Of a stretch of DNA of 64,000 nucleotides, positions 6,509 through 48,110 are shown piece after piece. The position numbers and the translations under genes are program-made. Source of the stretch: Vicinamibacterales bacterium (lineage in GTDB: Bacteria > Acidobacteriota > Vicinamibacteria > Vicinamibacterales > UBA8438). The stretch lies in NCBI GenBank assembly GCA_965263195.1, contig OZ253664.1, positions 2,037,045-2,101,044 of the forward strand. The letters are read 5' to 3'. A model generated the notes under the pieces. It did not search any database and had not been told where the DNA came from. It worked only from the letters and a program-made list of their open reading frames with translations. The first letter of the stretch is position 1. The number at the start of each line of letters is the position of its first letter.

Positions 6509-6979
6509 ATGGCCCACGTTTCGATCACGGTCAACGGCAAGCGGCGCACGGCCGACGTGGAGCCGCGTCTGCTGCTGGTCCATTTCTTGCGCGAACACCT
6601 CAACCTGACCGGCGCGCACGTCGGGTGCGACACCAGCCAGTGCGGCGCCTGCACCGTCCTGTTCGACGGGCGCAGCGCGAAGTCGTGCACCATCTTCGCC
6701 GTGCAGGCCGACGGCTCCGAGGTCACGACCATCGAGGCGCTGGCGGACGGCGACCGGCTCCACCCGCTGCAGGAGGGGTTCTGGGAAGAGCACGGCCTGC
6801 AATGCGGCTACTGCACGCCCGGCATGATCATGTCGGCAGTCAACCTGCTGAACGACAACCCGGCGCCGACGGAGCAGGAGATCCGGGACGGTCTGGACGG
6901 CAACTTCTGCCGCTGCACCGGCTACCAGCACATCGTCAACGCGATTCAGCACGCCGCAGACCACGCGGACGACAAATAG
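6509..6979 (+). CDS. coxS: (2Fe-2S)-binding small subunit of a molybdenum hydroxylase (CoxS-like)
   Basis: [13 protein letters not shown].., [11 protein letters not shown] and [10 protein letters not shown] cysteine clusters; a GGGAGG SD precedes the ATG at 6509. Confidence 0.9.
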
Positions 6980-6984
6980 ACGGC

Positions 6985-10211: not shown

Positions 10212-12574
10212 CGACATCCCCGATCCTGCCGAAGCTCGTCGGCCAGCGCGTCAAGCGCCGCGAGGACCCGCGCCTGATCCAGGGCCGCGGGACCTACGTC
10301 GACGACATCAAGCTCGCCGGCCTGCAGCACCTCGCGTTCAAGCGCAGCGATGTACCTCATGGCCGCATCCTGGCCATCGACACAAGTGCAGCTGAAGCGC
10401 TCGACGGCGTCGAGGCGGTCTTTACCGGCGCGCAGATCGCGGAGCTGGTCGGTCCGCTGCCGAGCCTGCTGCCGTTCCCGGCGCCCGAGCGCCGCGCGGT
10501 GGCGACCGACGTCGTGCGCTTCGTCGGCGAGCCGGTCGCCGTCGTGGTGGCGCGCGACCGCTACGTCGCGCGGGACGCAGCCGACGCCATCCTGGTGGAC
10601 TACGAGCCGCTGCCGGTAGTGGTCGATCCCGAGCAGGCGATGACCGGCCAGCCGATCGTGCTGCACGCCGACTTTCCGGACAACCTCATGCTCGGACCGC
10701 TGCCGAGCGGCACCGGCGTCGGGGCGGACGGCGAGGTCGACGACACGGCCATCGACCAGGCATTCGCGGACGCCGAAGTCGTGATCTCGCAGCGGATGGT
10801 CAACCAGCGGCTTGCGCCGACGCCCATCGAGCCGCGCGGCGTCGTGGCCCACTACGAACCGGGCAAGGACACGATCACCATCTGGTCTTCGACCCAGTCC
10901 CCGCACATGCTGCGGTCGTTCATCGCCTCGATGAACGATATGGGCGAGGACCAGGTGCGCGCCATCGCGCCGGAAGTCGGCGGCGGCTTCGGCTGCAAGT
11001 CGGCCGGCTCCGCCGAGGAATGCGTGACGGCCGCGGTTTCCAGGCGCCTGGGCGTTCCGGTCAAGTGGATCGAGGAGCGCTCGGAAGCGTTTCTCGCGAC
11101 GAGCCACGGCCGCGATCTGATCGGCTACGTCGACCTGGCGGCCCGGCGGGACGGTGCGGTGCTCGGCTTCAAGCTGCGCATCATCGCCGACGTCGGCGCC
11201 TACAACATGCTGTTCACCGCCGCCATTCCGACCTCCACGATGCTGATGGCGAGCGGCAACTACGCCATACCGGCCATCCGCGCGACGCTCACGGAGGTGT
11301 TCACCAACAAGACCCCGACGGACGCCTATCGCGGCGCCGGCCGTCCGGAAGCGATCTATTTCCTGGAGCGGGCGATGGACATGCTGGCCAGCGAGCTGGA
11401 GATGGATCCGGCCGAGCTGCGCCGGAGGAACTTCATCCGGCCGGAGCAGTTTCCGTATGCCACCCAGACGGGGGTCGAGTACGACTCGGGCGACTACGAC
11501 AAGGCGCTCGACCGCGCGCTGGAGACGGCGGGCTGGGAGCAGCTCAAGGCCGAGCGGGATGCCGCGCGCGCGGAGGGCCGGCTGGTCGGACTGGGTCTGT
11601 CGATGTACGTCGAGGTCTGCGGCGTCGGCCCCTCCGCGTCGCTGCCGATGGGCGGGTGGGAGCACTCGCAGGTCACCGTGGAGCGCGACGGGCGGATCAG
11701 CGCCACCACCGGCGCGTCGCCGCACGGGCAGGGCAACGAGACCACGTTCGCGCAGATGCTCGGCGACCAGTTCGGCGTGCCGCTCGAGCATGTCCGGATC
11801 CATCATGGCGACACGGCGGTGGTGAAGCAGGGCAGCCTCGGTACGGGCGGCAGCCGCTCGCAGGCCGTGGGCGGCGCAGCGCTGCACCTGGCCGGCGGCA
11901 AGGTAAAGACCAAGATGGCGAAGTTCGCGGCGCTGCTGCTCGAAGCGCACGAGGCCGACCTGGTCTTCGAGAACGGACGGATCGGCGTGCGGGGCGCTCC
12001 AGCCGCAGCGAAGACCTTCGCCGAGGTGGCCGCCTACGCCTACCGGCCGCTGAAACTGCCCGACGGGGTCGAGCCGGGGCTGAGCGACGAGGCCTTCTTC
12101 GAGCCGGCCAACAACACATACCCCTTCGGCTGCAACATCGCGATGCTGGAGGTGGACCGCGACACCGGCGAGCCGCGGCTGCTCCGGATGGTGGCGGTCG
12201 ACGACGCGGGCCACCTGATCAACCCGCTGATCGTCGAGGGACAGGTTCACGGCGGACTGGCCCAGGGGATCGGCCAGGCCTTGGTGGAAGAGGTGGTGTA
12301 CGGCAGCGACGGTCAGCCGCTGACCGGCTCGCTCATGGACTACGCCCTGCCGCGCGCGAGCGACTTCCCGCGTTTCGAGCTCGACAGCACCGTGACGCCG
12401 ACGCCGATGAACCCGCTGGGGGCCAAGGGGATCGGCGAGGCCGGTACGATCGGGTCCACGCCGTGCGTCGTGTCCGCCGCCGTCGATGCCTTGAGCGGGT
12501 TCGGCGCGCGCCACATCGACATGCTGCTGCGGCCCGAGAAGCTGTGGCGCATCATTCATGGCGGCCAGGTGTGA
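10208..12574 (+). CDS. coxL: second molybdopterin-binding large subunit, form-II CoxL-like paralog
   Basis: ATG at 10208 overlaps the coxM stop (ATGA). Colinear with the first coxL, with long identical peptides ([76 protein letters not shown]). Confidence 0.9.
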
Positions 12575-12576
12575 CG

Positions 12577-12828
12577 ATGCAGCGCCCGCCCCTGCCTCCC
12601 TTCACGGCCGATACCGCGAGACAGAAGGTGCGCCTGGCCGAGGATGCGTGGAACGGCCGCGATCCCGCCCGGGTGGCGCTGGCGTACACGCGCGACAGCC
12701 AGTGGCGGAACCGCGCGGAGTTCATCAACGGGCGCGCGGAGATCGAGGCGTTCCTGACCCGCAAGTGGAACCGGGAACTCGATTATCGACTCATCAAGGA
12801 GCTGTGGAGTCGGCGTCAATCACATTAG
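12577..12828 (+). pseudogene. DUF1348 family protein, N-terminal half (truncated by island insertion)
   Basis: ATG lies 2 nt after the coxL2 stop. [50 protein letters not shown] matches the N-terminal half of DUF1348. It then diverges into SRRQSH-stop at 12826-12828. Confidence 0.8.
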
Positions 12829-12876
12829 CCTCGTAAGTCACTGATGTGGCAGGGATTCAAGCCGGTCTGCGATCAG

Positions 12877-12899
12877 AGTTGCCCCCAAAGTTGCCCCCA
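12877..12899 (+). repeat. tandem AGTTGCCCCCA x2 (candidate integrase arm-type sites, left end of island)
   Basis: AGTTGCCCCCA at 12877-12887 and 12889-12899. The same motif recurs at 24270-24330 beside the integrase gene. Confidence 0.5.
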
Positions 12900-13233
12900 A
12901 CTCCGCGTTGTCAACCCCATCGTCCGGCGGGCCGTCAGACAGGGTCGTAGGCTCGAAGAGCCCGTGCTGATGCGGCATGCCAGTCGACTCGGCGCTTTCA
13001 CAAGACTGCCACCCTCGGTTCCGGTCGCCGGCTCAGAAACTGCGCGCTCGGGAGCCTGATCGTCGAATCCGCCTCCGGTTTCCTGGGTCGCGCGACGTGG
13101 CATGGACTCTGCCCTCGGTAGGGCGTGGCGCTCCCGTCGACGACCTACTGCCGCACTGGAGTGAGCCAGGGGCCGTCAGATGGATACCCCCATTTGGACA
13201 AGCGTGATCGGCCATGCAGACATTCGGAACGAA

Positions 13234-14211
13234 TTACGACACCTCCAGGGCGATGACGTGCAGGCTCAATTCCGTGACATGAATTGCCCGGACCGGAGTG
13301 CCTACACCGCCGGGCGTATACGGAGGAGGCTCCTCGCCTCTGGCCGCATACGCTTGATCCAGCGCCATCCGCAACTCTGAGAAATGGATCCACCTGACTT
13401 CCGTCGTCCTAGGGATGATTGGATCGTCCGTCCACGGGAACGGGCTGGCAAGCAGGGCGTCGATCCGAGCGCGCAGCTCCATGATGTGCACCGCGCGGAT
13501 CGGCGTCGCCCCGATAAGGGCAAGGGCGAAGTCGATCCCGCTCGTCGTCGCCCCGCCCCGCCACGGCAATCGGCGTCCCGGTCGTGACGTCGCAGAAAGT
13601 GAAACAGGGCAGGTCGTCATACAGCTCGTCGATGTAGCCGGCGAAGGAGGCGGCTAAGGTGCGCGTGAAGTAGGTCCCCGTTGGTAGCCCCCCGCGGTGT
13701 ACTGCCCCGCCCCGTCCGTACCATCGCAGTTCACCTGGGACCCCGACGCATCATAGATACAGGCAAAGACCCCGCTCACGCCGGTTCCGCCCGTGTCGGT
13801 CACCGTGCCGTTGATCGTCCCGCCGAGCGCCAGCGCGAAATCCACCCCGCTCGTCGTCGCCCCCGTCGTCACGGCGATCGGCGTCCCGGTCGTGACGTCG
13901 CAGGAAGGGAAACAGGGCAGGTCGTTATACAGCTCGTTGATATAGCCCGCCGAGGAGGCGAAGGTGCGCGCGAAGTAGGTCCCCGTTGGTAGCCCCCCCA
14001 GGGTGTACTGCCCCGTCCCGTCCGTAGACCCGAAGCCCGCAAACGACCCCGACGCGTCGTAAATCTGGACCCCGACCCCGCTCAGGCCGGTTCCGCCCGT
14101 GTCGGTCACCGTGCCGCTGATCGTCCCCGTGGCTTGCGCGTTGACCACGGAGGTGACGAGGCACATGAAGATGATCACGGGCACAACATGTCGTGCCCAG
14201 GACTGAATCAT
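13234..14211 (-). pseudogene. secreted carboxypeptidase-regulatory-like (CarboxypepD_reg) repeat protein, disrupted by at least two frameshifts
   Basis: Signal peptide MIQSWARHVVPVIIFMCLVTSVVNAQA (ATG 14211) followed by repeats GTISGTVTDTGGTGLSGVGVQIYDASG../GTINGTVTDTGGTGVSGVFACIYDASG... Reading continues in other frames after a C6 run at 13688-13693 (the paralogous repeat has C7 at 13993-13999) and again near 13550-13565. The C-terminal part (13234..13620) carries IRAVHIMELR-type repeats. Confidence 0.6.
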
Positions 14212-14567
14212 GTGAGCCGTGGATCGTCGACACGTGTAGGAAGAGTCCGTTCCCATAGCGAGGTCTCAATGGCCCCCCACGACCCAATATCAAGCCCGTC
14301 AGTCAGCAAGTCGTGCGAAGGCCATTCGCATCACTGCTCCTCTCCCCTCCACCGCGCACGATCACGACGGCGGCGCGCAACGATGCCGCACCGGCCAACG
14401 AGAAGAGCCCGTGCGTCCGGGCGGGCCCGACGCCACAAAGCGATACTCTCAGTCAACCGCGATTGTCCGGAATCTTATGGAAATGGCCGAAGCAGATCAC
14501 GCCGGAATTTCCATTGTGGTCGCACGGATCAGAACCGTTCGGACCTGCACGAGCCCGTATTCGTGGA

Positions 14568-14704
14568 GGGGCGGTCAAATCTCTGGGGGCTGACGGGACG
14601 GAGACCGCCGCCGCCGGGGGCCGACGCCGCGCCTCGATCTATAGGAAGTTCAAAACCTCATTTCCGATGTGCTTCGGACGACCCAGCAGGGCACAGTCAG
14701 CCGG
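14568..14704 (+). repeat. non-coding repeat, copy A (module 2 then module 1)
   Basis: GGGGCGGTCAAATCTCTGGGGGCTGACGG..GGAGACCGCC (14568-14609) and ATCTATAGGAAGTTCAAAACCTCATTTCC..GCCGG (14637-14704). Both modules recur at 17921-18130 in swapped order. Confidence 0.6.
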
Positions 14705-14922
14705 TCATCCGATATGACGACACAGCCGCGCGATTGAGGGGTGACGCCGTGACCCGCGCCTGTCTCGGCGCTGAGGCGATGCATCGACAGGCGTAAACGT
14801 CTCGCGCGCGGTGTGTCGGATGATCCTGTCCCAGGGGGTCCAGACAACGACGCTGATGCCCCATAGCCACGCCGCCCGCATCACACAGCCTCCCTTCACA
14901 AGTCGCTACGTGGGTACGAATC

Positions 14923-15588
14923 CTACTGGTCCGGCAAAGCGAACACGACCAGCCGCTCATTGCCTCTGGTCTCATCGGTGGCGCCGGCTGAGCCGTCCAG
15001 TTTCCTGACGCGGACGTTCCTAAACTTCACGATGCCTGCGCCATACTGCAACGCGATCGGGCCGTCGACATACTGCTCGTCCTCGACCTCCACCAAACGG
15101 GTGCCATTGAGCGTGACCGTCAACCGCGTTCCCTGGGCCGCGATCTCGTAGGTGTTCCAGCGCCCCCCCGCATCGATGACGCTCGTTGGTGAGGCCACGT
15201 GGACGATCCCACCGGTGCGGTAGGTCTGATCGGGTCGCGTGTCGTAGATATTCACTTCATACGAGTTGGTGTCGCGCACGGACTGCGGGTCCGCGCAGCG
15301 AATGAAGATGCCGCTGTTTGCGGGCTCGTTCACCCAGAACTCCAACGTCAGTTCGAAGTCGGCGTAGGAGTCATCAGTCACGAGGAAGCCACTGCCGCTG
15401 TCGGCCTGCACCGCGCCATCCAGCAGTTCCCAATTGGCATCGCCAAGCACTCTCCAGCCGTCGAGGCTGGAACCATCGAACAGCGTTGTCCACCCGTCAC
15501 CAGCTTGACCTGTCGCGCCAGACACAGGCTGAAGACTGATCACTCCGATCGCGAGCAACCCGATAACGATGACGGTTGAGCACTTCAT
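14923..15588 (-). CDS. DUF1080 (3-keto-disaccharide hydrolase-like) secreted protein
   Basis: ATG at 15588 with a GGAGGG SD. Signal peptide, then GWTTLFDGSSLDGWRVLGDANWELLDG.. and ..IALQYGAGIVKFRNVRV, typical of DUF1080. Confidence 0.8.
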   Translation of the reverse strand: MKCSTVIVIGLLAIGVISLQPVSGATGQAGDGWTTLFDGSSLDGWRVLGDANWELLDGAVQADSGSGFLVTDDSYADFELTLEFWVNEPANSGIFIRCADPQSVRDTNSYEVNIYDTRPDQTYRTGGIVHVASPTSVIDAGGRWNTYEIAAQGTRLTVTLNGTRLVEVEDEQYVDGPIALQYGAGIVKFRNVRVRKLDGSAGATDETRGNERLVVFALPDQ

Positions 15589-15699
15589 CTGCTTCCCTCC
15601 TCGGTGGGCACGAGGCGCGTGAGTGCCTCGAACCAGACGCGAAAATCAATGCCGGTCTTCACCACTTGTTCGCCTCTGGTGCGCCATGCCGCTCCGCCC

Positions 15700-16128
15700 T
15701 CACCGGCAAGCGCTAGGCGCTTCCACGACACCAAGCTGCTGCATCATCCAGAGATTGTCTTCGACACCCCAGTGCTCCACAAGCTTACGGTTCGAGATGC
15801 GCACGAAGTGTTGCTCGTCGACCGTGACGGTGCGGCTAGTAGCAGCGACGCCCATCAGCTCGCCCTGGTGAGTTCCGCGTGTGACGACGCGAACCGCTAC
15901 CTTGTCTCCCTCGGCCACGATGTCTTGTACGGTGACGGTGAGATCGGGAAACGCCGACCGGAACATCGTCACCACCTGTTTCAGACCAGCTTTGTCGGCA
16001 GGAAGATTGGGAGGTGGATTGTGATCGACGTAGTCGTCCGCGACTAACTCATCCACGACCGCAAGGTTCCCTTTACCAAACGCTTCATCGATGAAACGAC
16101 GTGTCGCTGCCTTGTTGACGTCCGACAT
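15700..16128 (-). CDS. SnoaL-like ester cyclase family protein
   Basis: ATG at 16128 (the track start at 16131 is TTG). NKAATRRFIDEAFGKGNLAVVDELVADDYVDHNPP.. and ..KLVEHWGV are typical of the SnoaL/ester cyclase family. Confidence 0.8.
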   Translation of the reverse strand: MSDVNKAATRRFIDEAFGKGNLAVVDELVADDYVDHNPPPNLPADKAGLKQVVTMFRSAFPDLTVTVQDIVAEGDKVAVRVVTRGTHQGELMGVAATSRTVTVDEQHFVRISNRKLVEHWGVEDNLWMMQQLGVVEAPSACR

Positions 16129-16671
16129 CAATGTTCCTCTTTCGTGTCCATATTGGCTCCGTCCCCTGTGGTCTGTAATGGGGTTGCCTGCCGATCATAC
16201 TTCCGATCCAGGGCGGCCTGGCCGGGGATCTCGCCCTTGGCGGGCAACGAGACGACACGAACGACAGCTATCCCTGCGCGGGGAAGTTCATACGCCGGAG
16301 GAGGGCGTGGGAGCAGCGATCTCGTGGGCTTAGGTGACGGCGGATTCGGCTTTTGATGGCACCCCACCGCAGTCACGGGCAAGCCCGACACCCAACTCGC
16401 GAAGCACGCGGCAATAGAACCTGACATAGCCCCCAAGCGTCCGAGGGGCTTCTACCGCCAAGGCGCGAACCATCGCCTGACGGAGTATCTGGGTCTGAAT
16501 GGTTGACGTGAGTGTCCGAAAGCGCTAGAGGGTCATTGGCGGTCCTCCTTTACTACTTAGGACGCATCAGGACCTCCAGCCGGTCCTTGGGAACAGGGCG
16601 ATTGTCTAGTTCGTCGGTTCCCTCCGCGCCTTCAGCTCCTCATGCCAGTCAGCGGGTCCCTCGCGGCAGTT

Positions 16672-17754
16672 CTACTCCGGCACTGGGGCGACCGCGATCC
16701 TCTCACCACGCGCCGATCCAAGCCAGAGTTCGTTTCCAATCTGAATGGCCGTGGTCGACGCTACGAACCCTTCCATCGAGGGGTGCTCAAAAATCCGCTC
16801 GACTTCCAACGTTTCCGGGTCGATCTTCGAGACGTTCGACGTCTCTAGCAACGGCTCTCGCGGCTCGACAATCGACTGTCCGTCCTTGTCGGTGTGACCC
16901 GCTGCGAGTAGCGCCGTCCCGTCGATCGACATCCGTAGATTGTCAGGCCGGAATCCCAGCTGGACGATGTCAACCTGCACCGGCGTCTGATCAAGCGACA
17001 CGCGCGTGAGCTTCTCCTCGCGCCACCCGGCAATGTACAGCCAGCGCCCGTCCCTCGAGATCTCCAGTCCATTTGGCGCCGTGTCGTCGGTACCCGGTAT
17101 CGGCATCCACCCCGCACCGGCGTGCCACGCCCACACGTTTCCGGTCCCCCCATTTGTGCCCGCTACGCCTCCCCCAGGCAGAGCGACCACACCATTGATA
17201 CGAATAGTCGACAGCGCTGGCACGCATCCGACCCATGTGAAGGCCGGTGGCGCTGCCCCGGCGTCCACCTCGAACACCTCGATCGCCTCCCTGGAGCCGT
17301 GGTGGACGACATACAACGTGTGGACGGCGTCTGCTCCCGGTTGGAGGTAGAGGCCGTGGGAAGTGAATGCCTCCCGCTGCTCCGCGTCGAGCGGACCGGG
17401 ACACGTCGGGTATGTCGTGGCGTCGAGCCGCTCGTTTGGTGCGGCCGTCGGGAACACGGCCGTGGCGGTCTTGTCGCGCACGTTGACGAGCTGGAGCCGG
17501 CCACCCTCCCGAAGCCCGGAGGCAATGACCCACTCCTCACCCGGAACGACGACGAGGTCTTCGGGACTGACGAGATCGCAAACGAACTGGACTTCTCCGA
17601 CGGGTTCGCAAGGTGTCACGCCGACAGGGGCAAAGCCGGGGCGTACCTCGCTCGAGTCGGGAGTGGGCTCCGGCGCGGGACCAGGTTCGGGCGCGCCGCA
17701 GCCCAGTGTGAACATTGCAGATAAACCAAGTAGTGTTAGTGTCAGTACTCTCAC
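16672..17754 (-). CDS. lipoprotein of unknown function (beta-propeller-like composition)
   Basis: GTG start at 17754 preceded by AGGAGGG. Lipobox LSAMFTLGC. No family confidently recognised. Confidence 0.6.
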   Translation of the reverse strand: MRVLTLTLLGLSAMFTLGCGAPEPGPAPEPTPDSSEVRPGFAPVGVTPCEPVGEVQFVCDLVSPEDLVVVPGEEWVIASGLREGGRLQLVNVRDKTATAVFPTAAPNERLDATTYPTCPGPLDAEQREAFTSHGLYLQPGADAVHTLYVVHHGSREAIEVFEVDAGAAPPAFTWVGCVPALSTIRINGVVALPGGGVAGTNGGTGNVWAWHAGAGWMPIPGTDDTAPNGLEISRDGRWLYIAGWREEKLTRVSLDQTPVQVDIVQLGFRPDNLRMSIDGTALLAAGHTDKDGQSIVEPREPLLETSNVSKIDPETLEVERIFEHPSMEGFVASTTAIQIGNELWLGSARGERIAVAPVPE

Positions 17755-17920
17755 AGCGTCCCTCCTAGAGCTTGCGCGATGCGATCTGCCAGCGCCGGGC
17801 GACCGGTTCGAGGGCTAACGCCCGTGTGTCGCCGGCCTTCTCCAGCTCGCCGATCGCATCAATGTAGGAATTCTAGTACCCCAATAAGGTTGTGTACGTC
17901 AAGTTGTTCAATCTAATCTA

Positions 17921-18130
17921 ATCTATAGGAAGTTCAAAAACTCATTTCCTGATGCGCTCAGGCCCTGTTGGGCATAGTCGGCCGGCGCGGTGAAGGGTGC
18001 AGCGATTCCCGCGCTCTGATGCCTCCGGGGACGATCTTCGGCGGCTGCGAAGCCTATGCGCAAGTGTGCGGGACGAGCCACCCGGCGGGGGGGCGTCAAA
18101 TCTCTGGAGGCTGACGGATTCGGAGACCGC
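17921..18130 (+). repeat. non-coding repeat, copy B (module 1 then module 2)
   Basis: ATCTATAGGAAGTTCAAAAACTCATTTCC..GCCGG (17921-17985) and GGGGGCGTCAAATCTCTGGAGGCTGACGG..GGAGACCGC (18088-18130). Preceded by (AATCT)3 at 17910-17924. Confidence 0.6.
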
Positions 18131-18304
18131 TGGCAGCTACTCTCGCGAGCGGGCAGCAAATCAGTTTCAGATTGGCGAGGACGGCAAGTCAGCTCGCGGC
18201 GAGAGCCGTCTCCACGGGCACCTTAGGCCGAAGTTTCAGAGCTGATCGCGTATAAGTCACTGTATTTCGGGCGGTTATTGGATTTCAAGGGGTGTCGTTA
18301 ATGG

Positions 18305-20068
18305 CTACATTCGCGGCGACACCCCCAGCAACTCGAAGCAGCGCTGCTGCACCGGCGTGGGCCGGGTCTGCAAAGGGAAGCTGGCGCCGGTGTCGGCTAC
18401 CTGCATCGTGTTGACGGTCAGCGTCCCCAGGTCGGTGAGCAGCGTGCGGAAGCTGTGGACGGGCAGGTCGTCTGCGGTCCGTTTACGGGCTGCCTTGGCC
18501 AGGGCCGCCGGTGAGCGCTGGGCCGGCGCCACGACCGAGCGCCGCCGCTGCTCTCCCGCCTGCGGGTCATGGTCATCGAAGAGCAGCGGCTTGAGCTTCC
18601 CCCGCATGTGCCACTCGACGTAGTAGGCCAGCATGCAGAGCAGGACGTGGGCGCGCACCCGGTCAGCCCGCCGGTGGTGGAGTGGCCGCACCTTCAGGTC
18701 CACGGACTTGAGGCACCGAAACGCCCGCTCGACATTCGAGAGGTCCTTGTAGGCCCGCACGGTCTGCGCGGCATCAAACTGCGCCGGCTCGACATTCGAG
18801 CGCACGATGTAGAGTCCGTCGAGCAGCGCCTCGGCCGCGACCTTGTCCTCGTCCCGGCGAAACGTGAAAGCGTCGTCGGTGATGGTGGTGACGAAGTGCT
18901 TGGCGACTTTGTGGCGGTCAATCACCTTGCCGACACGCACGCCGATGGCGGCCGCGGAGCGCAGCGGATTCGTCTTGCGCCGGGTCGCCGCCGCAATCGG
19001 TTCGAGGTCCGCTTCGGTGGCCGAGAGCAATTCCTGCCGCTTGCGCCCCCGCTCGGCGGCCAGCAGCGGGTTGCGGCAGACGACGAGCCGCTCGCCGGGG
19101 AACTCCTCGCTCGTCACTTCGGCCAGGTCCCGCTCGTCGAACAACGACGGCGTCACCGTGCCGGCGGCCACCAGCTTGCGAATGGTCGGCGCCCGCAGCG
19201 TGGTGATCCAGCGCAGTCCATCGACGCCTGCCAGGTCCTCACGGATGCGCGCCGCGGTCAGCATGCCCCGGTCGCCGACCAATACCACCCGCTTGAGCCC
19301 GAAGCGCTGCCGGAGCTTTGCCACCTGACTGGCCACCGTGTTCGGGTCCGCTGTCGAGCCTTCGAATACCTCGACCGCCACCGGACAGCCCGTGGACGTG
19401 CACAGCAGGCCGAAGACGATCTGCAGGGTGCCCTTCTTGCCGTCGCGGCTGTGGCCGCGCCGGGCCAAGGGGCAGTGACTGCCTTCCAGATAGCTGGACG
19501 TGAGGTCGTAGAGCACCAGCGTGTGGTCCTCAAGGTGCCGTTTGGCCAGGCGTTGCTCGATGGTTGCCTGGCGCGGCACCAGCCAGTCCATCGCGGCATA
19601 CAACTCATGCTGGTCGACGGCGCCGAGCCCGAGCGCCTCGCCCAAGGTGGACACGGCGCTCTCGGGGGCCAGGGCGCGGGCGGTCGCGAGCTTCGACTGC
19701 GCGTCGATGACGCGGGCGACAATCAGGGCCACGACGAGGTCGCGCGCGCGGCTCGCCGGGCGGGCGATGAGCGTGGGCAGGCCGAGCTGCCGCAGGGTGC
19801 CGAGCACGGCGGCGATGTGGCCATGCGGCAGGCTTCGGACGCAGTCGAAAGCGTTCTCGGGGTTGACGAACGTCTCGCCCTTCAGGGCACGACGGACCAG
19901 ATCGATGACGCGGTCGGGCAGGTGCGAGACGTTTCCGAGGGTTTCGTGCTTGACCCTTCCGTCCTCGCGGAAGGTACGTCGGAGCAGATGGGAATGGTAG
20001 GTCTGGTTCTTGTAGCGGCGCGTGGTGGTGGCTACATGAACGGCGCCTCCCCTGCTTGCCATACGCAT
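18305..20068 (-). CDS. IS1634-family (IS4 superfamily) DDE transposase
   Basis: ATG at 20068. N-terminus ..YKNQTYHSHLLRRTFREDGRVKHETLGNVSHLP.. and overall size (587 aa) are typical of IS1634-family transposases. IS termini not resolved. Confidence 0.85.
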   Translation of the reverse strand: MRMASRGGAVHVATTTRRYKNQTYHSHLLRRTFREDGRVKHETLGNVSHLPDRVIDLVRRALKGETFVNPENAFDCVRSLPHGHIAAVLGTLRQLGLPTLIARPASRARDLVVALIVARVIDAQSKLATARALAPESAVSTLGEALGLGAVDQHELYAAMDWLVPRQATIEQRLAKRHLEDHTLVLYDLTSSYLEGSHCPLARRGHSRDGKKGTLQIVFGLLCTSTGCPVAVEVFEGSTADPNTVASQVAKLRQRFGLKRVVLVGDRGMLTAARIREDLAGVDGLRWITTLRAPTIRKLVAAGTVTPSLFDERDLAEVTSEEFPGERLVVCRNPLLAAERGRKRQELLSATEADLEPIAAATRRKTNPLRSAAAIGVRVGKVIDRHKVAKHFVTTITDDAFTFRRDEDKVAAEALLDGLYIVRSNVEPAQFDAAQTVRAYKDLSNVERAFRCLKSVDLKVRPLHHRRADRVRAHVLLCMLAYYVEWHMRGKLKPLLFDDHDPQAGEQRRRSVVAPAQRSPAALAKAARKRTADDLPVHSFRTLLTDLGTLTVNTMQVADTGASFPLQTRPTPVQQRCFELLGVSPRM

Positions 20069-20129
20069 ATACTAGATTAACTCACGTTAAAGGTCAAGTA
20101 TATTAGTGGCTACACAATGCACCCAGAAT

Positions 20130-21299
20130 TCACGACATCTTCTGCCCGCTCAAGGACTTACGCTGACTTTGCCGCTGAAACTTCGGCTTAGGGCCGGTGA
20201 GAGCCGGTGGCACGCGACGAGTCCAGCGCATCCGGTGGCCGTCACGGTCCACGAGTGGGTCGATGCCAAAACTTCTTTGCAGCGACGTGGCCCACCGCAG
20301 TCGCCTCGGTTTTTCCAGCCGTTCCTGCCCAAGAAGTGCGAACACGGCATCGTGTGTCTGGCACTTCACGCGTGGCGCGAGGAGACCGAAATACCGGATG
20401 GCGTGGCGGTAGCGGTCAGGCACGTGATCGGCGAGCGTGGCCAAGAACTCGGCCGGGCTGTACGTCGTCTCGACGGTGCGTTTGGTGCGCGTGTCCTTCG
20501 TCACAAATCGGATTTCTTGACGGGTGATCGTCCGGAACCGGTGCTGCGCGATGGGCGGCCGGCGGGCGTAACGGCCCGCATAGCCGAGGAACTGCTTCTT
20601 GCTTCGGAATCGCTTGACGTCGATGTTCCACCACCGTTCGTACTGGGTGGTGAGCAACCGCAGCAACGCGCTGCGAAACATGTCGGTATCAAGGACGCCG
20701 GCCCGCGCGGCCTCCCGCAGCAACGTGATGACGGCGTAGCGCCACATCGGCATTAGCGCCTTCCGGTCCAGCCGGGCTCGGGCACACCATTTCGTGCCGT
20801 CCTCGCGGAGACCGCCCTCGGACACGAGGATGTGCAGGTGGCAGTTGAAGTTCAGGTGCCGGCCGAAGGTGTGCGGGATGACCACGATCATCAGCCGGAT
20901 GCCGTACTTCTGTCGTGCCCATTGCTGCAGCACCTGCGCACCCAAGACGGGAAGATCGTGCAGGAGATGGCGGTTCCGCTGGAACAGCGGCCACAGCACA
21001 TCCGGCATGGTGAGGCAGACGTGGGCGTACGGGACGTCGGGCAGCTCTCGCCACTGGTCGCGCTGCCACGCTCGGGTCGCCTGATACCCGCAACTGGGAC
21101 AGGCCCGTGATTTACAGGTGTGATACACGACACGCTCTTCGGTGTTAGACGCGAAGATCTCCGCGCCGAGGGCCTCGGTGCCGCAGTCGACCACCTTGGC
21201 AAACGCCTCCCACACCGCGGGACGAGTGTCGTCACGGTCCCACTCGTCCCGATGCATAGCGAGGACGTCTCTGAGCGGTCGAGCGCGAGCCGGGGTCAT
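20130..21299 (-). CDS. IS91-family HUH/Y2 rolling-circle transposase-like protein
   Basis: ATG at 21299 overlaps the ParB-like stop (ATGA). Zinc-binding YHTCKSRACPSCG, HUH motif NCHLHILV and Y2 region LGYAGRYARRPPIAQHRF. Confidence 0.8.
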   Translation of the reverse strand: MTPARARPLRDVLAMHRDEWDRDDTRPAVWEAFAKVVDCGTEALGAEIFASNTEERVVYHTCKSRACPSCGYQATRAWQRDQWRELPDVPYAHVCLTMPDVLWPLFQRNRHLLHDLPVLGAQVLQQWARQKYGIRLMIVVIPHTFGRHLNFNCHLHILVSEGGLREDGTKWCARARLDRKALMPMWRYAVITLLREAARAGVLDTDMFRSALLRLLTTQYERWWNIDVKRFRSKKQFLGYAGRYARRPPIAQHRFRTITRQEIRFVTKDTRTKRTVETTYSPAEFLATLADHVPDRYRHAIRYFGLLAPRVKCQTHDAVFALLGQERLEKPRRLRWATSLQRSFGIDPLVDRDGHRMRWTRRVPPALTGPKPKFQRQSQRKSLSGQKMS

Positions 21300-22243
21300 C
21301 GGGTGTGCTTCTCCTGCAGCTCCTCGTAGCACATCTGCGTCACCACCACGGCTCGCCCTGGAACGTCCACGACCGCCACGGTGATGTCAGCCGGGTCGTA
21401 CATCGGGAGTCCACCGAGGACGGTGACGGCCACGCCGTCGGGTTGAGCCGGAGCACCGGTGTCAGCGTGCGCCCTGATCAATCGGCCGACCGTCTTCTTG
21501 ATGCCCCCCTGGTGCAAATGTGTCCAGAGCGCATCACGCTGCCCCTTGGGGTTCAGCGTGCGCCACTGCGAGGCCCGATGGATGCTGACCTCCCCCCGTA
21601 GGAGTCGCTCCCGCACCTCCGGAATCACGGTGGCCAGGAGCTGCTTGACCTTGGTCACGTTGCCGGTCGAGACGCCCGCCTCCGCGGCGATGTCCTTCCG
21701 CACGTCGCGGTGCTCGTGGTTCGTCAACTTTGACGAGGCCCGCGTGTCGCCAGTCGACAGTGCCGGTCGACGCCGTTCCCTGAGGTACGACTCCAGGCCC
21801 AGGGCCAACACGATCCGGCCGTAATCGTTCAGCCCCTGGCAGCGCCGGTGCCGTTGGATGACAACCTGGAGCGCCTCCTCGTCGGTCACGTCGTACTCGA
21901 AGCAGGGAAGCGTCGGCTGCTGGCGTTCGATCGCCACATGCCACCGCGCGTGTCCGTCGAGAATCGTGCCATCCGTGGTCGTCAATAACGGCTCGCGGAT
22001 CGACCCTGGCTGCTGCGCCACTCGTCGAACTCGTGCCGCGGCGATTGGAGCACACAGGTCGTGATAGGCCGGATGTGGCCGCAACGCCGCGGTGGGGCGA
22101 TACACCAATCGATCCCGATGCGGACCATCCTGGCTCTCGTGTGCGTTGGGAATGGCGTCCAGTCGGGTGCCACCGCCGCTCAGGTGCGCATCGCCCGGTA
22201 GGTCGGAGGAATCGCCAGGACCGGGCGTAGAGCGCGTAGTCAT
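21296..22243 (-). CDS. ParB/sulfiredoxin-like nuclease-domain protein
   Basis: ATG at 22243 overlaps the AlpA stop (ATGA). ..LRPHPAY..REPLLTTTDGTILDGHARWHVAIE.. is ParB N-terminal-domain-like; an HTH-like C-terminal part follows. Confidence 0.7.
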   Translation of the reverse strand: MTTRSTPGPGDSSDLPGDAHLSGGGTRLDAIPNAHESQDGPHRDRLVYRPTAALRPHPAYHDLCAPIAAARVRRVAQQPGSIREPLLTTTDGTILDGHARWHVAIERQQPTLPCFEYDVTDEEALQVVIQRHRRCQGLNDYGRIVLALGLESYLRERRRPALSTGDTRASSKLTNHEHRDVRKDIAAEAGVSTGNVTKVKQLLATVIPEVRERLLRGEVSIHRASQWRTLNPKGQRDALWTHLHQGGIKKTVGRLIRAHADTGAPAQPDGVAVTVLGGLPMYDPADITVAVVDVPGRAVVVTQMCYEELQEKHTR

Positions 22244-22458
22244 GGCTGTAGTTGCCGCTCCGCGGGAGCGATCTTCCGGCTCTTCTCGACTTGCGCGGTC
22301 AGCCAGGCGTTCACTTCGGCTTCGAGCCAGCCGACCGCTCGTCCGCCCAAGGAAACGGGGGCGGGAAACGCGCCTTGGGAGACTCGGAGATAGATCGTGC
22401 TTCGGGACAGCCCAGTGCGGGTCTTGACGGCCGGAAGTCTCAGTATCGTGTGCGGCAT
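22240..22458 (-). CDS. alpA: AlpA-family phage/island regulatory protein (excisionase-like HTH)
   Basis: ATG at 22458. MPHTILRLPAVKTRTGLSRSTIYLRVSQGAFPAPVSLGGRAVGWLEAEVNAWL. Confidence 0.8.
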   Translation of the reverse strand: MPHTILRLPAVKTRTGLSRSTIYLRVSQGAFPAPVSLGGRAVGWLEAEVNAWLTAQVEKSRKIAPAERQLQP

Positions 22459-23034
22459 CTTCACACCTCTCGCAGTGAAAACGGACTCAACGAGATCACG
22501 ATAGCTGAGCGATTTGGGCGATGAAATAGGGGACCCGCGGCGCCGCGTGGGCAGAAACGCACACGAATCCGGACCCTGGCGGGAGGCGGACATCCCAACC
22601 AATGTGACCCGTTCGGTCGAGGGCGGCGCAGAACCCTTATGGAATCAAAGGGATAGAGAGGCGTGGTTGGGCGAAAAAATTCCGCCCAACTTTTTACGTC
22701 GTGAGGTGTTTCCGGATGGTGGCCGCACTCCGACCAGCCGCGATGTTCTTCTTGGCAATCTGCTCGGCGTACCACCCTTTGGACATGTTCGGACGACGTT
22801 TCCGCATACCGCGGTGGGCTTTCCGCCAGCGTTCGTGGAGTGCCTGCGTGTCGAGCTTGCGCGCCTCACGCCGCGTCGTGCTCGGCGTGTAGTGCGGATC
22901 GGCGGTCGTCGCCGAATCGACCAATCGCCGAATGGCGTCGATGTCCAGGGCGTAGGCGCCGTGACCGAAGTCGACCAGATCTGGAGTAATGACGAGCCAT
23001 CAGTGCCACCTGCACCGGTCGTGCTCGAACGCTT

Positions 23035-24267
23035 CTACGCGCGCCTGAACAGCGGAATCACCTGGGCGTCGCCCTTGAGCGCATCCAGATAGTCGGCCCA
23101 CGCCTGCATCATCTTGCGTCGTTCAGGGAGATGCTCCGCGAAGTTGTAAGCGGCGCTGACGGCGTTGCGCTCAGCGTGGGCGAGCTGGCGTTCGATGACC
23201 TGATGGTTCCAGCCGCGCTCGTGCAGGAGGGTTGACGCCATGCTGCGAAAGCCGTGGCCGGTCATTTCGTCTTTCGTGTAGCCCATCCGACGCAGCGCTG
23301 CAAGCACGGCGTTCTCGCTCATCGGTCGTGCCGCTGACCGTGCGCTGGGGAAGACGAAGCTGGGCGCGTCGGGCTTGAGGGACAACACGCGGTTCGTCAG
23401 CGGCTCAAGCTCGCGCAGAATGTCAACGGATTGTCGGGAGAGCGGCACAATGTGCGGCTCTCGCATCTTCATGCGATGGGCGGGAATGCGCCATTCGGCC
23501 TCGTGGAGGTCGATTTCTGGCCACTGCGCCCAGCGCAGCTCGCCGGGGCGCACGAACACCAGCGGGGCCAGCCGCAAGGCGCACTTCGTCACGAAGAACC
23601 CTGCGTAGGTGTCGATCGCACGAAGCAGCTCACCAATGCGTTTCGGTTCGATGATAGAGGCGTGATGTCGCTCCTTGGTCGGAGGTAGGGCGCCGCGAAT
23701 ATCGGCGATCGGATCGCGCTCTGCCCGGCCTGTGGCAATGGCGTACCGGAAGACTTGTCCGCAGTTCTGCATGGCGCGGTGGGCGGTCTCCACTGCACCG
23801 CGGTTCTCTATCCGGCGCAGCACCGAGAGCACTTCCGGCGCCCTGATGTCGGCGACCGGGCGCTCGCCAAGCCAGGGAAACAGGTCGTGCTCAAACCGAC
23901 GCAAGATGCGATCGCCGTGGCTTGCGACCCACCCTGGCGAGAACTTCGCGTGCCACTCCCGAGCGATGGCCTCGAAGCTGTCTGCTCCCGCGACCGCGAG
24001 CTTCTGCGCTTTGCGGGCCTGCCCAGGATCGATACCGGCGGCAAGCTGCTGGCGAACCGCATCACGTCTCTCACGGGCCGATTTCAGACTAACATCCGGG
24101 TAGACCCCGAGCGAGATCCGCTTTTCCTTGCCGCCGAACCGGTATTTCCAGCGCCACCACTTTCCGCCGGCGGGGCTGACCTCCAGGTAGAGACCGCCGC
24201 CGTCGAACAGCTTGCGTGTCCTGGCCCGCGGCTTGACAGTGCTGACCGCGATGTTCGTCAGTGGCAT
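23035..24267 (-). CDS. int: P4-like tyrosine integrase (DUF4102-type N-terminus)
   Basis: ATG at 24267. MPLTNIAVSTVKP..GGGLYLEVSPAGGKWWRWKYRFGGKEKRISLGVYPDVSL N-terminal arm-binding domain, catalytic HGFRSMASTLL and ..LAHAERNAVSAAYN (Tyr). Confidence 0.9.
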   Translation of the reverse strand: MPLTNIAVSTVKPRARTRKLFDGGGLYLEVSPAGGKWWRWKYRFGGKEKRISLGVYPDVSLKSARERRDAVRQQLAAGIDPGQARKAQKLAVAGADSFEAIAREWHAKFSPGWVASHGDRILRRFEHDLFPWLGERPVADIRAPEVLSVLRRIENRGAVETAHRAMQNCGQVFRYAIATGRAERDPIADIRGALPPTKERHHASIIEPKRIGELLRAIDTYAGFFVTKCALRLAPLVFVRPGELRWAQWPEIDLHEAEWRIPAHRMKMREPHIVPLSRQSVDILRELEPLTNRVLSLKPDAPSFVFPSARSAARPMSENAVLAALRRMGYTKDEMTGHGFRSMASTLLHERGWNHQVIERQLAHAERNAVSAAYNFAEHLPERRKMMQAWADYLDALKGDAQVIPLFRRA

Positions 24268-24269
24268 GA

Positions 24270-24330
24270 GGGGGCAACTCCTGTTCGACGTTCCCCTGTT
24301 GCCCCCAGAGTTGCCCCACATTGGGGGCAG
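24270..24330. repeat. cluster of GTTGCCCC(C)A motifs at the integrase 5' end (candidate arm-type/att-proximal sites)
   Basis: GGGGGCAACT (24270-24279, inverted), TGTTGCCCCCA (24297-24307), AGTTGCCCCA (24309-24318) and TGGGGGCAG (24322-24330, inverted, degenerate). A TAAGACAC/GTGTCTTA hairpin follows at 24374-24399. Confidence 0.5.
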
Positions 24331-24410
24331 ATCTCCCCGGAAGAAACTGGACTCTATCGGACAGTATATCAGGTGTAAGACACCTATTTACAGTGTCTTA
24401 TCTGTCTTTC

Positions 24411-24671
24411 TGGGCTCAGGTGGAACGTGTTGGTGGTGGAGGCGACGGGAACCGCATCGCGGTGCGCTTCGCCTACGAGTATCACGACGACAGCGGCAAC
24501 TGGTTCCGCGCCTACGGCAACGAGAACTGGGAATTCGACGACAACGGCTTGATGCGCCGGCGGATTGCCAGCATCAACGACCTCCCGATAGCCGCACGCG
24601 AGCGCCGCTACCGGTGGCCCCTGGGCCGCCGGCCCGACAACCATCCCGGCCTGAGCGAACTCGGCCTGTGA
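24411..24671 (+). pseudogene. DUF1348 family protein, C-terminal half
   Basis: ..[73 protein letters not shown]-stop. Same strand as the N-terminal half at 12577. It has no start codon of its own in a sensible position. Confidence 0.8.
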
Positions 24672-24756
24672 GGCGCCGCGATTCCTTTGACGGCACGGCT
24701 CGGCGCAGGAGTCAAGGCGGGAGCATCAAGCCGCGAACCGTGAGACGATAAAGGCG

Positions 24757-26106
24757 ATGCGTCGCCCCGTTGCGTTGCTCGCCGCCATCACGGTTGCCAT
24801 TGCTATCGCCGTGCCGCTGGCCGCGAACGACTGGCCGGAGTGGCGCGGCACCGGCCGCCTGGGCGTCTGGACGGACACCGGCATCGTCGAGGAGTTCCCC
24901 GCCGGCGGACTGACAGCCACTTGGCGTGTGCCGGTCGGCGGCGGCTACGCGGGTCCGGCGGTGGCGGACGGCCGCGTGTTCGTGACCGACGCGCTGCGCG
25001 CGGACCCCCGCAGCACCGCGGTGGTCGAGCGGCTGCTCGCGCTGGACGAGGCGACCGGCAGCGTGCTGTGGGAGCACGAATGGGACACCAACTACGCGGG
25101 GCTGCAGCTCATCTACGCGACCGGCCCGCGCGCCACGCCGACCGTGGACGGCAACCGCGTCTACGCGGTCGGCGCCATGGGCAACCTGCTGGCGCTCGAC
25201 GTGGCGGACGGCAGCGTGCTGTGGCAGAAGGACTACGTTCGCGACTTCAACGCCGCCATTCCGTCGTGGGGCATCACCGGCGCGCCGCTCGTGGACGGCG
25301 ACCGACTCATCTGTCTCGTGGGCGGCGAGCCGGACGCCAAGGTCGTCGCCTTCGACAAGCTGACCGGCGAGGTGCTCTGGCAGGCGCTCTCGTCCGACTG
25401 GGAGCCGGGCTATACGGCGCCAATCATGATCGAGGCCGCCGGCCTGCCACAGCTCATCGTCTGGCACCCCCGGGCGATCAGCTCGCTCGACCCGGAAACC
25501 GGCAGCGTCTACTGGGAAGTCCCCCACATCGTCGACATGGGCTTGACCATCCCGACCGCCGTGCGCAGCGGTCCGTACCTCTTCGTGACCTCGCAGTACG
25601 GCGGCGCCCGCATGCTGCGGCTGGCCGAGTCGCATCCGGACGCCACCCTGGCCTGGGAAGGCGTCGGCGAGAGCGACCCGGAGTACGGACGGGTCTTCGA
25701 CACGCTCGACTCCGTGATCAGCACGCCGGTGATCCAGGGCGACTACCTGTACGGGGTCGACGGGGAGGGCGTCCTGCGCTGCCTGGAGCTGCGGACGGGC
25801 CGGCGCATCTGGGAGACCGAAGCGCTTATCGGCGGCCGCACACACCAGGGCACGGCATTCTTCGTCCGGCACGGGGATCGCTACTTCATCAATACCGACG
25901 CCGGCGATCTCGTGATCGCGCGGCTCTCGCCGGCAGGCTACGACGAGATCAGCCGCACGCACCTGATCGATCCGACCAGTCCTGTCACGCGCCGCCGTCC
26001 CCAGGGTCCGGTCGTGCACTGGTCGCACCCGGCGTACGCGAACCGCCACATCGTCACACGCAACGATGAAGAGATCGTGCGTTTCTCCCTGGCCCGGACA
26101 CCGTAG
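24757..26106 (+). CDS. PQQ-like beta-propeller repeat protein (secreted)
   Basis: Signal peptide, then NDWPEWRGTGRLGVW.. and repeated ..DGRVFV/..GNRVYA/..GDRLIC blades. Confidence 0.8.
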   Translation: MRRPVALLAAITVAIAIAVPLAANDWPEWRGTGRLGVWTDTGIVEEFPAGGLTATWRVPVGGGYAGPAVADGRVFVTDALRADPRSTAVVERLLALDEATGSVLWEHEWDTNYAGLQLIYATGPRATPTVDGNRVYAVGAMGNLLALDVADGSVLWQKDYVRDFNAAIPSWGITGAPLVDGDRLICLVGGEPDAKVVAFDKLTGEVLWQALSSDWEPGYTAPIMIEAAGLPQLIVWHPRAISSLDPETGSVYWEVPHIVDMGLTIPTAVRSGPYLFVTSQYGGARMLRLAESHPDATLAWEGVGESDPEYGRVFDTLDSVISTPVIQGDYLYGVDGEGVLRCLELRTGRRIWETEALIGGRTHQGTAFFVRHGDRYFINTDAGDLVIARLSPAGYDEISRTHLIDPTSPVTRRRPQGPVVHWSHPAYANRHIVTRNDEEIVRFSLARTP

Positions 26107-43046: not shown

Positions 43047-43208
43047 ACCGCTCATATTGTCGCGGTCATGCTGGCTGGCTATATTTGCTAACACCGATGC
43101 CACGAAGCAAACGACGCGATGCCGCGTCTGCCACGGTGCAGGAATCGGAATAATGCCGGATCCGAACAGCCGATCTCGGTCGGACTATCTTGGTGGAGAA
43201 ATGACAGA

Positions 43209-43439: not shown

Positions 43440-43506
43440 GCCCAAGCCCTACACATTTGAATCGGTGAGAAGCCATAGCGCCTGATCGCGAACCATCACC
43501 TTGCGT

Positions 43507-45980: not shown

Positions 45981-45990
45981 TTCGGTGACC

Positions 45991-48101: not shown

Positions 48102-48110
48102 TACACCTCC

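Follow-up and report, generated by a model that had tools for sequence, protein, structure and literature searches.

An 11.6-kb P4-type integrase island inside a DUF1348 gene: probable off-target integration by a tmRNA-targeting lineage

Introduction

The 3' end of the transfer-messenger RNA (tmRNA) gene, ssrA, is targeted by genomic islands that carry P4-type tyrosine integrases, of which CP4-57 of Escherichia coli is an example. In a 64,000-nucleotide stretch of a Vicinamibacterales genome (contig OZ253664.1, positions 2,037,045 to 2,101,044; hereafter the window), an 11.6-kb island with an integrase of this type lies between two halves of a DUF1348 gene, and we consider it probable, at about 0.72, that this island of an ssrA-targeting integrase lineage integrated off-target into a pseudo-attB, or secondary site, on the antisense strand of DUF1348. 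Like the ssrA islands with P4-type integrases treated by Islander (PMC4383910), it has a three-domain integrase, an int gene ~170 nt from a tmRNA-type 3' end, and arm repeats in both arms. However, whereas its closest relatives sit at a regenerated ssrA, the window element has no tmRNA gene beside it, only island-borne core relics of 12-20 nt, and its integration partner was the antisense strand of a protein gene that was not regenerated and that lost 7 bp.

Insertion away from a primary site is known from the secondary attachment sites of phage lambda, and the junctions formed at secondary sites by ICEBs1 and SGI1 would be expected to be conservative. The tRNA-specific element ICEBs1 of Bacillus subtilis uses look-alike secondary sites inside genes, from which its excision is impaired, especially with a heteroduplex (PMC3715440), and secondary-site integration has also been documented for SGI1 in Salmonella (PMC2297512). 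The locus described here is similar in that an element with a tRNA-type primary site lies inside an open reading frame (ORF) at an attB-like sequence, in that non-identical overlaps predict poor excision and counter-selection, and in that there are signs of inactivation. In contrast to the ICEBs1 secondary insertions, which arose in laboratory matings into a recipient without the primary attB (PMC3715440), the event in the window occurred naturally, and its inherited product is present in many metagenome samples beside the empty allele. It also differs in that the half-sites of its target are 9 rather than 7 nt apart and in that its junctions are non-conservative. It would be a natural counterpart of what the laboratory work on ICEBs1 predicts, namely off-target entry into an in-gene look-alike, no clean exit, and decay.

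A tyrosine-integrase island within an ORF is also the arrangement made by dusA-specific integrases, but the site in the window is used in no relative and its gene is destroyed, whereas the dusA element is said to restore the 5' end of its gene. In more than 200 bacteria the dusA-specific integrases occupy a single position, within the 5' end of dusA (PMC4482086). The window reveals neither a new integrase specificity nor a new kind of element.

Results and Discussion

One DUF1348 gene in two halves

A preliminary description of this DNA had read the ORFs on either side of the island as one DUF1348 gene in two same-strand halves, and comparison with the Pfam profile of the family (PF07080) bears this out. 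The N-terminal fragment (12577-12828, plus strand) comprises 77 native codons (12577-12807), whose product ends ..RLIKELW, and then runs into island DNA, which adds SRRQSH and a stop codon (12826-12828); A12808 is base 1 of a lost threonine codon. The C-terminal fragment (24447-24671, plus strand; GNRIAVRF...GLSELGL, stop 24669-24671) lacks a start codon of its own, C24446 is base 3 of a lost glycine codon, and the residues VGGGGD that precede GNRIAV are encoded by the junction and not by the DUF1348 gene. The two fragments, which agree in strand and order, match complementary profile positions, 1-74 (E 2.9e-35) and 74-129 (E 1.2e-25) of 130, and the joined halves score E 9.7e-64; 12577-12807 and 24447-24671 are two halves of one gene. 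Because its start codon lies 2 nt past the stop of the upstream coxL-like gene, the N-terminal fragment is probably still translated with the operon.

A protein search with the joined halves returned thousands of intact proteins, the best of them 154-157 amino acids long and 92-96% identical. The 120 listed homologues are 154-165 amino acids long, and KELWTFGGNRIAV spans the break in all of the best intact ones. The contig of the best match (L001) has the gene order of the window (Fer2 / coxL-like / coxM-like / coxL-like / DUF1348 / PQQ_2), with DUF1348 uninterrupted at 10001-10465 between the coxL-like and PQQ_2 genes and no insertion. The window minus the island is collinear with L001 (92.2% over 13.6 kb), from which the N-terminal fragment differs at 9 of 232 nt and the C-terminal fragment at 8 of 226 nt; the C-terminal fragment reads without stops, and there are no further stops in either.

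The empty allele and the reality of the insertion

Island flanks and insert were compared with contigs from public metagenomes (Logan) over 11800-25200; runs are labelled X and contigs L. Contigs of runs X3 and X6 carry the empty site, in which 12808 is joined straight to 24446 via exactly CGTTCGG, and from these the island is 12809-24445, or 11,637 bp, in agreement with the P4-integrase island of ~11.6 kb proposed earlier. The ancestral target is CTG TGG ACG TTC GGC GGG AAC CGC (L W T F G G N R). Relatives with an intact coxL-DUF1348 junction, to which the preliminary description had looked for the unoccupied site, thus have one uninterrupted gene with the target CTGTGGA-CGTTCGG-CGGGAAC, both in L001 and in the empty-site contigs. 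The 7 target bases CGTTCGG are present in neither junction of the filled allele. A secondary deletion had been suggested as well, and it holds for these 7 bases only, because intact synteny with L001 shows that nothing larger was deleted.

The filled allele is no assembly artefact, since each junction is crossed unchanged by several contigs: both are crossed by Logan contigs of several studies, several without any difference, and the left junction recurs nearly verbatim in many public runs. An independent ENA contig (L215), reached through the cluster representative of the window integrase (P0121), shares the insertion (99.8% identity over 11.9 kb). Public metagenomes contain filled, empty and further-deleted alleles side by side; the empty allele in X6 differs from the window flanks by one base per ~77, and the depths of filled (~7-10) and empty (4.7-10.8) alleles are comparable. 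The island has a guanine-plus-cytosine (GC) content of 60-66%, as against ~70% in its flanks, and by convention is placed on the minus strand, with int reading away from the tRNA-type core.

The integrase and the usual target of its lineage

The int gene (23035-24267, minus strand) encodes a full-length P4-type tyrosine integrase of 410 amino acids, counted from MPLT, with the Pfam domains Arm-DNA-bind_3, Phage_int_M and Phage_integrase, all above their cut-offs. The catalytic R (VRPGEL), HGFR, LAH and AAY were read directly in its translation rather than from a formal alignment to a solved integrase. Database proteins of 410 amino acids match it at 97-100% identity, and the exact window sequence, in its 410- and 428-amino-acid forms, is not on record.

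A scan for relatives of the integrase, taken at one genome per species, gave 80 loci (57-88% identity). The 11 closest loci (66-88%) have int in the same orientation as an RNA gene and 115-170 nt downstream of it; this gene is tmRNA at eight (L004-7 and L009-12) and tRNA-Ala(cgc) or tRNA-Glu(ctc), two and one respectively, at L002, L003 and L008. Loci with still closer integrases (89-90%; L218-223) all lie, six of six, directly after full tmRNA genes ending GGGTTCGACTCCCGCCGCCTCCACCA. Insertion at tRNA or tmRNA 3' ends with regeneration of the target, which the preliminary description gave as the norm for P4-like integrases, is what the closest relatives of the window int (77-90% amino-acid identity) display, and the regular primary site of this lineage is the 3' end of the tmRNA gene (ssrA). 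A repeat of the tRNA or tmRNA 3' end was sought as attR within 10 kb in L002-L012 and was not found; the crossover was therefore unmappable that way and was narrowed via five metagenome contigs carrying the distal arm, described below.

The window departs from this pattern. ARAGORN and Rfam found no tRNA or tmRNA gene within 28 kb of either junction, the only tRNA of the window being tRNA-Met (52945-53021), and beside int, where the relatives have an intact regenerated tRNA or tmRNA gene, there is just a 16-nt 3'-end relic. These findings bear on the suggestion, implied by the preliminary description, of a protein-coding target with a very short core, that is, of DUF1348 as a dedicated attachment site to which a P4-type integrase has been retargeted. 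The island does lie within the gene and is flanked by short repeats only, but DUF1348 is present at none of the 80 int-related loci, close relatives are all at tmRNA or tRNA genes, and the gene is unrestored with 7 bp lost. The island ends, moreover, carry tmRNA sequence on the strand opposite to the gene, whereas the earlier reading had been on the gene's strand. The only other copies located in DUF1348, in L215 and the Logan contigs, descend from this same insertion. We therefore regard a dedicated site in DUF1348 as highly improbable.

Two arrangements among the relatives are of interest in their own right. In a sibling island whose DNA is 97.8% identical (L216, 9782-9836; the same in L217), a 55-nt 'mini-tmRNA' adjoins the island in place of a complete tmRNA gene; it matches the Rfam tmRNA model at its 5' and 3' ends but lacks the 314 middle positions (23.9 bits, under the gathering score). 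It may have been left behind by earlier island traffic, or it may be a further decoy site. In L220 and L221 (10001-15313), two P4-type int genes stand in tandem past one tmRNA with an ISL3 element between them, a case of tandem island accretion.

Island ends: tmRNA-type cores and integrase arms

Read on the minus strand, tmRNA 3'-end cores stand at both island ends, CCCGTCGCCTCCACCA beside int and GATTGACGCCGACTCCAC at the far end. The int-proximal core (attL; 24434-24449, minus strand) is CCCG-TCGCCTC-CACCA, the last 16 nt of a tmRNA-type 3' end, of which CCCG (24446-24449) is common to the target. The junction there, ..GCGATGCGGTT CCCG TCGCCTC CACCA CCAACACG.., fuses a tmRNA-type end to antisense DUF1348, and ..TCCCGTCGCCTCCACCA terminates real tmRNA genes in unrelated contigs. 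In L216, GATTCCCGCCGCCTCCACCA is followed by the spacer CCAACACGTTCCACC as in the attL of the window, and over the spacer CCAACACGTTCCACCTGAGCCC L216 and L217 are identical to the window.

The int-distal core (attR; 12804-12823, minus strand), GTGATTGACG-CCGACTC-CAC, is a degenerate copy of the tmRNA 3' end, of which TCCAC (12804-12808) is common to the target; the far junction reads ..CGAGGCTAATGTGATTGACG CCGACTC CAC AGCTCC.., and ..CGACTCCACCA terminates real tmRNA and tRNA-Ala genes in unrelated contigs. Five contigs were recovered from metagenomes with the distal-end sequence, and in three of them (L082, L084 and L086) the arm ends GTGATTGACGCCG and runs on into CCTCCACCA and unrelated DNA. 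This arrangement, GTGATTGACGCCG|CCTCCACCA, is that of a canonical attR at a tmRNA site; in the remaining two contigs other sequences follow the arm. In X2 and X6, copies of the distal end continue with ACTCCACCAC (ACTCCAC-CAC; middle CCGACTC) and then unrelated DNA, and a scan of viral contigs with the distal-end pattern gave no match. Judging from these cores, the attP of the lineage would be about GTGATTGACG-CCGCCTC-CACCACCAACACG, and from the point at which the contexts diverge we infer a crossover within the 3' strand of the acceptor stem and not in the T loop.

Both integrase arms are present. The distal (P) arm (12811-13148, minus strand) is conserved over ~340 nt, with identities of 84% in L082, L084 and L086, 88% in L083 and 94% in L085, and has arm-type repeats GGGGCAAC at 12878-12885 and 12890-12897. 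The int-proximal (P') arm (24268-24433, minus strand) has the same repeat at 24271-24278 (plus), 24298-24305 (minus) and 24310-24317 (minus), together with a conserved box ATACTGTCCGATAGAGTCC and a hairpin TAAGACAC..GTGTCTTA. By-eye alignments were made with 11 relatives and 7 closer ones; the arm is 97.8% identical to L216 and L217, and the window and all relatives have in common a spacer box ATACTGTCCG..GTCC as well as GGGGCAACTCTGGGGGCAAC and GGAGTTGCCCCC, repeats that precede the start codon. Five of the six copies of the GGGGCAAC 8-mer in the window are in the two island ends; the sixth (10037) is a chance match. A long direct repeat between the ends is absent, as had been noted before. 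The best repeats are a 19/20 arm repeat (distal arm with 24298-24317), which none of 500 shuffles reached, and an imperfect 16/22 core repeat, GTGATTGACGCCGACTCCAC at 12804-12823 (minus), reached by 3 of 1000 shuffles.

This anatomy also bears on whether a HUH-Y2 transposase encoded in the island (below) inserted the whole block by rolling-circle, one-ended transposition at the GTTC in the lost CGTTCGG. The IS91 family prefers GTTC and makes no target duplication (PMC13181058), and a Y2 gene with a conserved terminal motif is present. Both copies of that motif (17921-17948 and 14637-14664) are internal, however, the boundaries of the island are integrase arms with tmRNA-type cores, and IS91 insertion deletes no target bases. 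IS91/Y2 was rejected on this anatomy as the agent of the split, and among the explanations weighed here it is the least credible.

The target as a look-alike of the ssrA end

The DUF1348 site GCGGTTCCCGCCGAACGTCCACAGCTCC is the antisense of codons 76-83, and the antisense target TTCCCGCCGAACGTCCAC, in blocks GCGGTTCCCG CCGAACGTC CACAGCTCC, mimics the ssrA end TCCCGCCGCCTCCACCA. TCCCGCCG and TCCAC (8 nt and 5 nt) are identical in the target and the ssrA end but lie 2 nt further apart in the target (9 vs 7). In the 52 kb of host sequence that make up the island-less window, TTCCCG-N7-TCCAC is expected 0.045 times and was observed twice, at the target and at 41991-42008, and the stricter TTCCCGCCG-N2-6-TCCAC is expected 0.005 times and was observed once, at the target. 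The second TTCCCG-N7-TCCAC match (minus strand), TTCCCGCAGCGCGTCCAC, is unoccupied.

We propose that the pseudo-attB GGTTCCCGCCGAACGTCCACAG in antisense DUF1348, by its resemblance to the ssrA end GACTCCCGCCGCCTCCACCA, recombined with the attP core of the island, which would have left both arms with their GGGGCAAC sites and the tmRNA-type cores intact at the junctions. In this event 7 target bases would have been lost and the overlaps left unequal (TCGCCTC vs CCGACTC), such that excision would be inefficient and the element would have become trapped and then eroded. Catalysis was presumably by the island's own integrase, and the 9-nt spacing may have caused the non-conservative outcome.

Several observations weigh against this proposal. 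A generic local-alignment score ranks the target only 9th to 238th of ~3000 windows in the 52-kb host, and the resemblance argument therefore rests on identity in the junction register. Each junction middle is one base off the CCGCCTC of the lineage. Neither the circle junction (..GGTGGTGGAG|..) nor a scar was seen in the contigs of eight runs, although contigs cannot reveal rare forms. The exchange was not conservative: a single conservative crossover predicts that one junction keeps the target middle (CCGAACG or CCGAACGTC), and it is absent from both.

The two junction middles are both 7 nt long and island-type and differ at 2 of 7 positions, and the CCGAACG(TC) of the target is gone. In the attR middle, CCGACTC, the A matches the target and also the X2 and X6 copies, and in the attL middle, TCGCCTC, the T at overlap position 1 occurs in no known parent. 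One-crossover models, placed in the T loop, in CGCCG or in TCCAC, were tried and rejected, as none yields both junctions. On the junction sequences, three readings of their origin remain: repair of a 7/9-nt heteroduplex, later conversion or tandem collapse with a sibling island, and replacement from an unexcised donor.

According to the first, the non-conservative junctions would be the signature of a distinct tyrosine-integrase outcome, in which exchange is initiated and, given 9- versus 7-nt spacing, host repair discards the target overlap on both sides. We advance this tentatively and think it rather doubtful. If it were true and reproducible, tmRNA-targeting integrases could make irreversible knock-outs at a predictable class of look-alike sites. 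Such sites would include, as a recurrent case in GC-rich bacteria, the W-T-F-G-G-N codons of DUF1348, which are highly conserved.

The second reading is a variant of off-target integration in which ordinary secondary-site integration was followed by a second event at attL, which would have replaced the target-derived middle of the int-proximal junction: gene conversion by, or homology-facilitated recombination with, a sibling island at ssrA, or else tandem accretion of a sibling and collapse. The distal junction fits a TCCAC crossover with an attP middle of CCGACTC, as in X2 and X6, tandem integrases past a tmRNA exist in the family (L220 and L221), two IS91-type ends together with the permuted piece of a tail give the island a composite look, and many sibling copies are found in the same metagenomes. 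This course, however, needs two or three events, the island contains no internal att remnant and no third set of arm repeats, and the T at attL overlap position 1 still has no known parent, so that we consider it possible without being probable.

The third reading dispenses with the integrase. A linear donor with an integrated island, attL ..GATTCCCG-TCGCCTC-CACCA.. and attR ..GACG-CCGACTC-CACCA.., would have recombined 'ends-out' via TTCCCG and TCCAC, replacing the 7 bases between them. This replacement alone accounts for every letter of both junctions, with their 7-bp loss and two different island-type middles. Both middles are known as real tmRNA or tRNA-Ala ends, and CCGACTC-CACCAC distal ends stand before unrelated DNA in X2 and X6. 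Yet no donor with exactly both cores was found, and a landing site that mimics the att core of the carried integrase would be a coincidence, though the same similarity would guide annealing. Double illegitimate recombination via 5-6 nt on each side is, moreover, very rare for an 11.6-kb insert. We judge replacement unlikely, more so than a second event at attL, and favor off-target integration at the pseudo-attB.

Excision and decay

The DUF1348 gene was not regenerated, as the preliminary description had recognized, because the island supplies a tmRNA 3' end and no DUF1348 sequence. With 7 target bases lost and the junction middles differing, excision cannot restore the gene: recombination of attL with attR at best gives a site 2 nt short, that is, a frameshifted scar, with the predicted sequence CTGTGGAG(T/G)CG(G/A)CGGGAAC. 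Most tyrosine recombinases require identity in the overlap (PMC2817482), and integrase-mediated excision of this island is probably impaired. Of the two forms that the preliminary description had named, an excised circle and an empty site, the contigs show only the latter, in X3 and X6 and with the ancestral target sequence.

Further alleles are consistent with an island that is trapped and eroding. In X8 and X15, 23781 is joined to 24441 within the same DUF1348 insertion, a 659-bp deletion (23782-24440) that removes the 5' half of int and the whole P' arm and is present in some populations. In the window, an IS1634-family insertion (approximately 18202-20202, minus strand; transposase 18305-20068, NCBIfam NF033559 E 6e-93) sits between the Y2 gene and its tail. 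It is absent there in L002 and L216, and an X6 contig joins 18214 to 20187 without it.

Because filled, empty and further-deleted alleles coexist in metagenomes, the locus could be used to measure the fitness cost of off-target integration in nature. These alleles might also reveal whether the operon that DUF1348 closes, which encodes a cox-like (form II, AYRGAGR) molybdenum hydroxylase, can do without that gene. For the mining of integrases for genome engineering (e.g. PMC12884075), the locus supplies a specific example of an off-target sequence, spaced at 9 nt, of a tmRNA-specific clade that is widespread.

The two coxL-like genes of this operon (6625-9348 and 9998-12574) are paralogues that flank the coxM-like gene; they share 83% DNA identity through L001. 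The AYRGAGR motif, which we take to be typical of form II (non-canonical) CO-dehydrogenase-like enzymes, is present in both.

The IS91-type block and cargo of the island

Inside the island the preliminary description had recognized a module of alpA, parB-like and HUH-Y2 genes together with IS1634, of which AlpA, the IS91-type Y2 transposase and IS1634 were confirmed. The IS91-family HUH-Y2 transposase (20130-21332, minus strand) matches Pfam Y2_Tnp (E 1e-33) and Zn_Tnp_IS91 (E 6e-16) and NCBIfam IS91 (E 1e-73), and is 91% identical in amino acids to its counterpart in L002. The AlpA-family small DNA-binding protein (PF05930, E 1.3e-18) is encoded within a maximal ORF at 22240-22602 (minus strand), the corresponding gene call in L215 being 72 amino acids (~22240-22458). 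Between them lies a 315-amino-acid ORF (21296-22243, minus strand) that overlaps both neighbors and is 74% identical to its L002 counterpart; it matched no Pfam or NCBIfam family, and its 'ParB-like' identity was accordingly dropped. In sibling islands (L215, L216/217, L219 and L222/223) this ORF always stands between alpA and the Y2 gene.

The block of alpA, the 315-amino-acid ORF and the Y2 gene recurs in the siblings in either orientation relative to int. It occupies 17921-22981 in the window, with IS1634 inside, 8926-12000 in L002, 13887-18000 in L216, 17793-20995 in L219 and 6461-9547 in L223. In the window it closes with the tail of an IS91-family element (17921-18201, minus strand), homologous to L002 11752-12000 and L216 17683-17838, which ends in GAAATGAGTTTTTGAACTTCCTATAGAT (17921-17948). 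This 28-nt terminal motif, G(G/A)AATGAGTTTTTGAwyTTCCTATAGAT, is conserved past every Y2 gene in the sibling islands, and in three loci it directly precedes CAAG, GAAC or GGAC, the complements of IS91-family target tetranucleotides (PMC13181058). The motif does not resemble a Piscirickettsia IS91 copy, and its reading as 'oriIS-like' therefore rests on position, conservation and the adjacent tetranucleotides. No other end (terIS) was found for the block, and at the apparent breakpoint, 22981/22982, siblings have an additional 1.7-2.6 kb.

In our interpretation, the block is an IS91-family element that carries two accessory genes and travels as a passenger in the island; it is not an island-specific replication module. 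As in the IS91 family (PMC13181058), an upstream ORF overlaps the transposase start, by 37 nt for the 315-amino-acid ORF and Y2 here and as the stop of orf121 on the start codon of tnpA in IS91. It differs from that family in carrying an AlpA-type gene and the 315-amino-acid ORF, which are not described for IS91, and it is a passenger rather than the agent of the split.

An orphan second terminal motif (14637-14664, within 14551-14664, minus strand) is followed by a permuted tail fragment (14551-14608) that is 91% identical to L002 11824-11881. The two direct motif copies (14637-14664 and 17921-17948) bracket 3.2 kb with three cargo genes, and the bracketed cargo and the permuted tail suggest rolling-circle capture or a collapsed tandem. 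Right after the first motif copy (17921-17948) there is an (AGATT)n repeat, the number of which varies among the window, L215 and run X2.

The cargo genes (14923-17754, minus strand) encode a 3-keto-disaccharide hydrolase (14923-15588; PF06439, E 1e-40), a SnoaL-type protein (15700-16131; PF07366, E 5e-38) and a weakly SGL/lactonase-like protein (16672-17754; PF08450, E 4e-4, below the cut-off). A further cargo remnant (13234-14256, minus strand) consists of repeated, frame-broken CarboxypepD_reg-type ORFs (PF13620, E 1.3e-10) with internal repeats of ~306 nt.

Elsewhere in the window, a second low-GC stretch (~43000-53000; 55-62% vs ~70%) abuts tRNA-Met (52945-53021, minus strand). Encoded there are a C-5 cytosine methylase (45991-47388), a DUF6339 protein, a protein similar to the C-terminal domain of the RNA polymerase alpha subunit (44001-46025) and several ORFs without a family. 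A second integrase island at tRNA-Met was considered here and rejected, as Pfam searches of seven large ORFs revealed no integrase and the tRNA 3' end is unrepeated; the stretch may represent a different kind of island, for defence or cargo.

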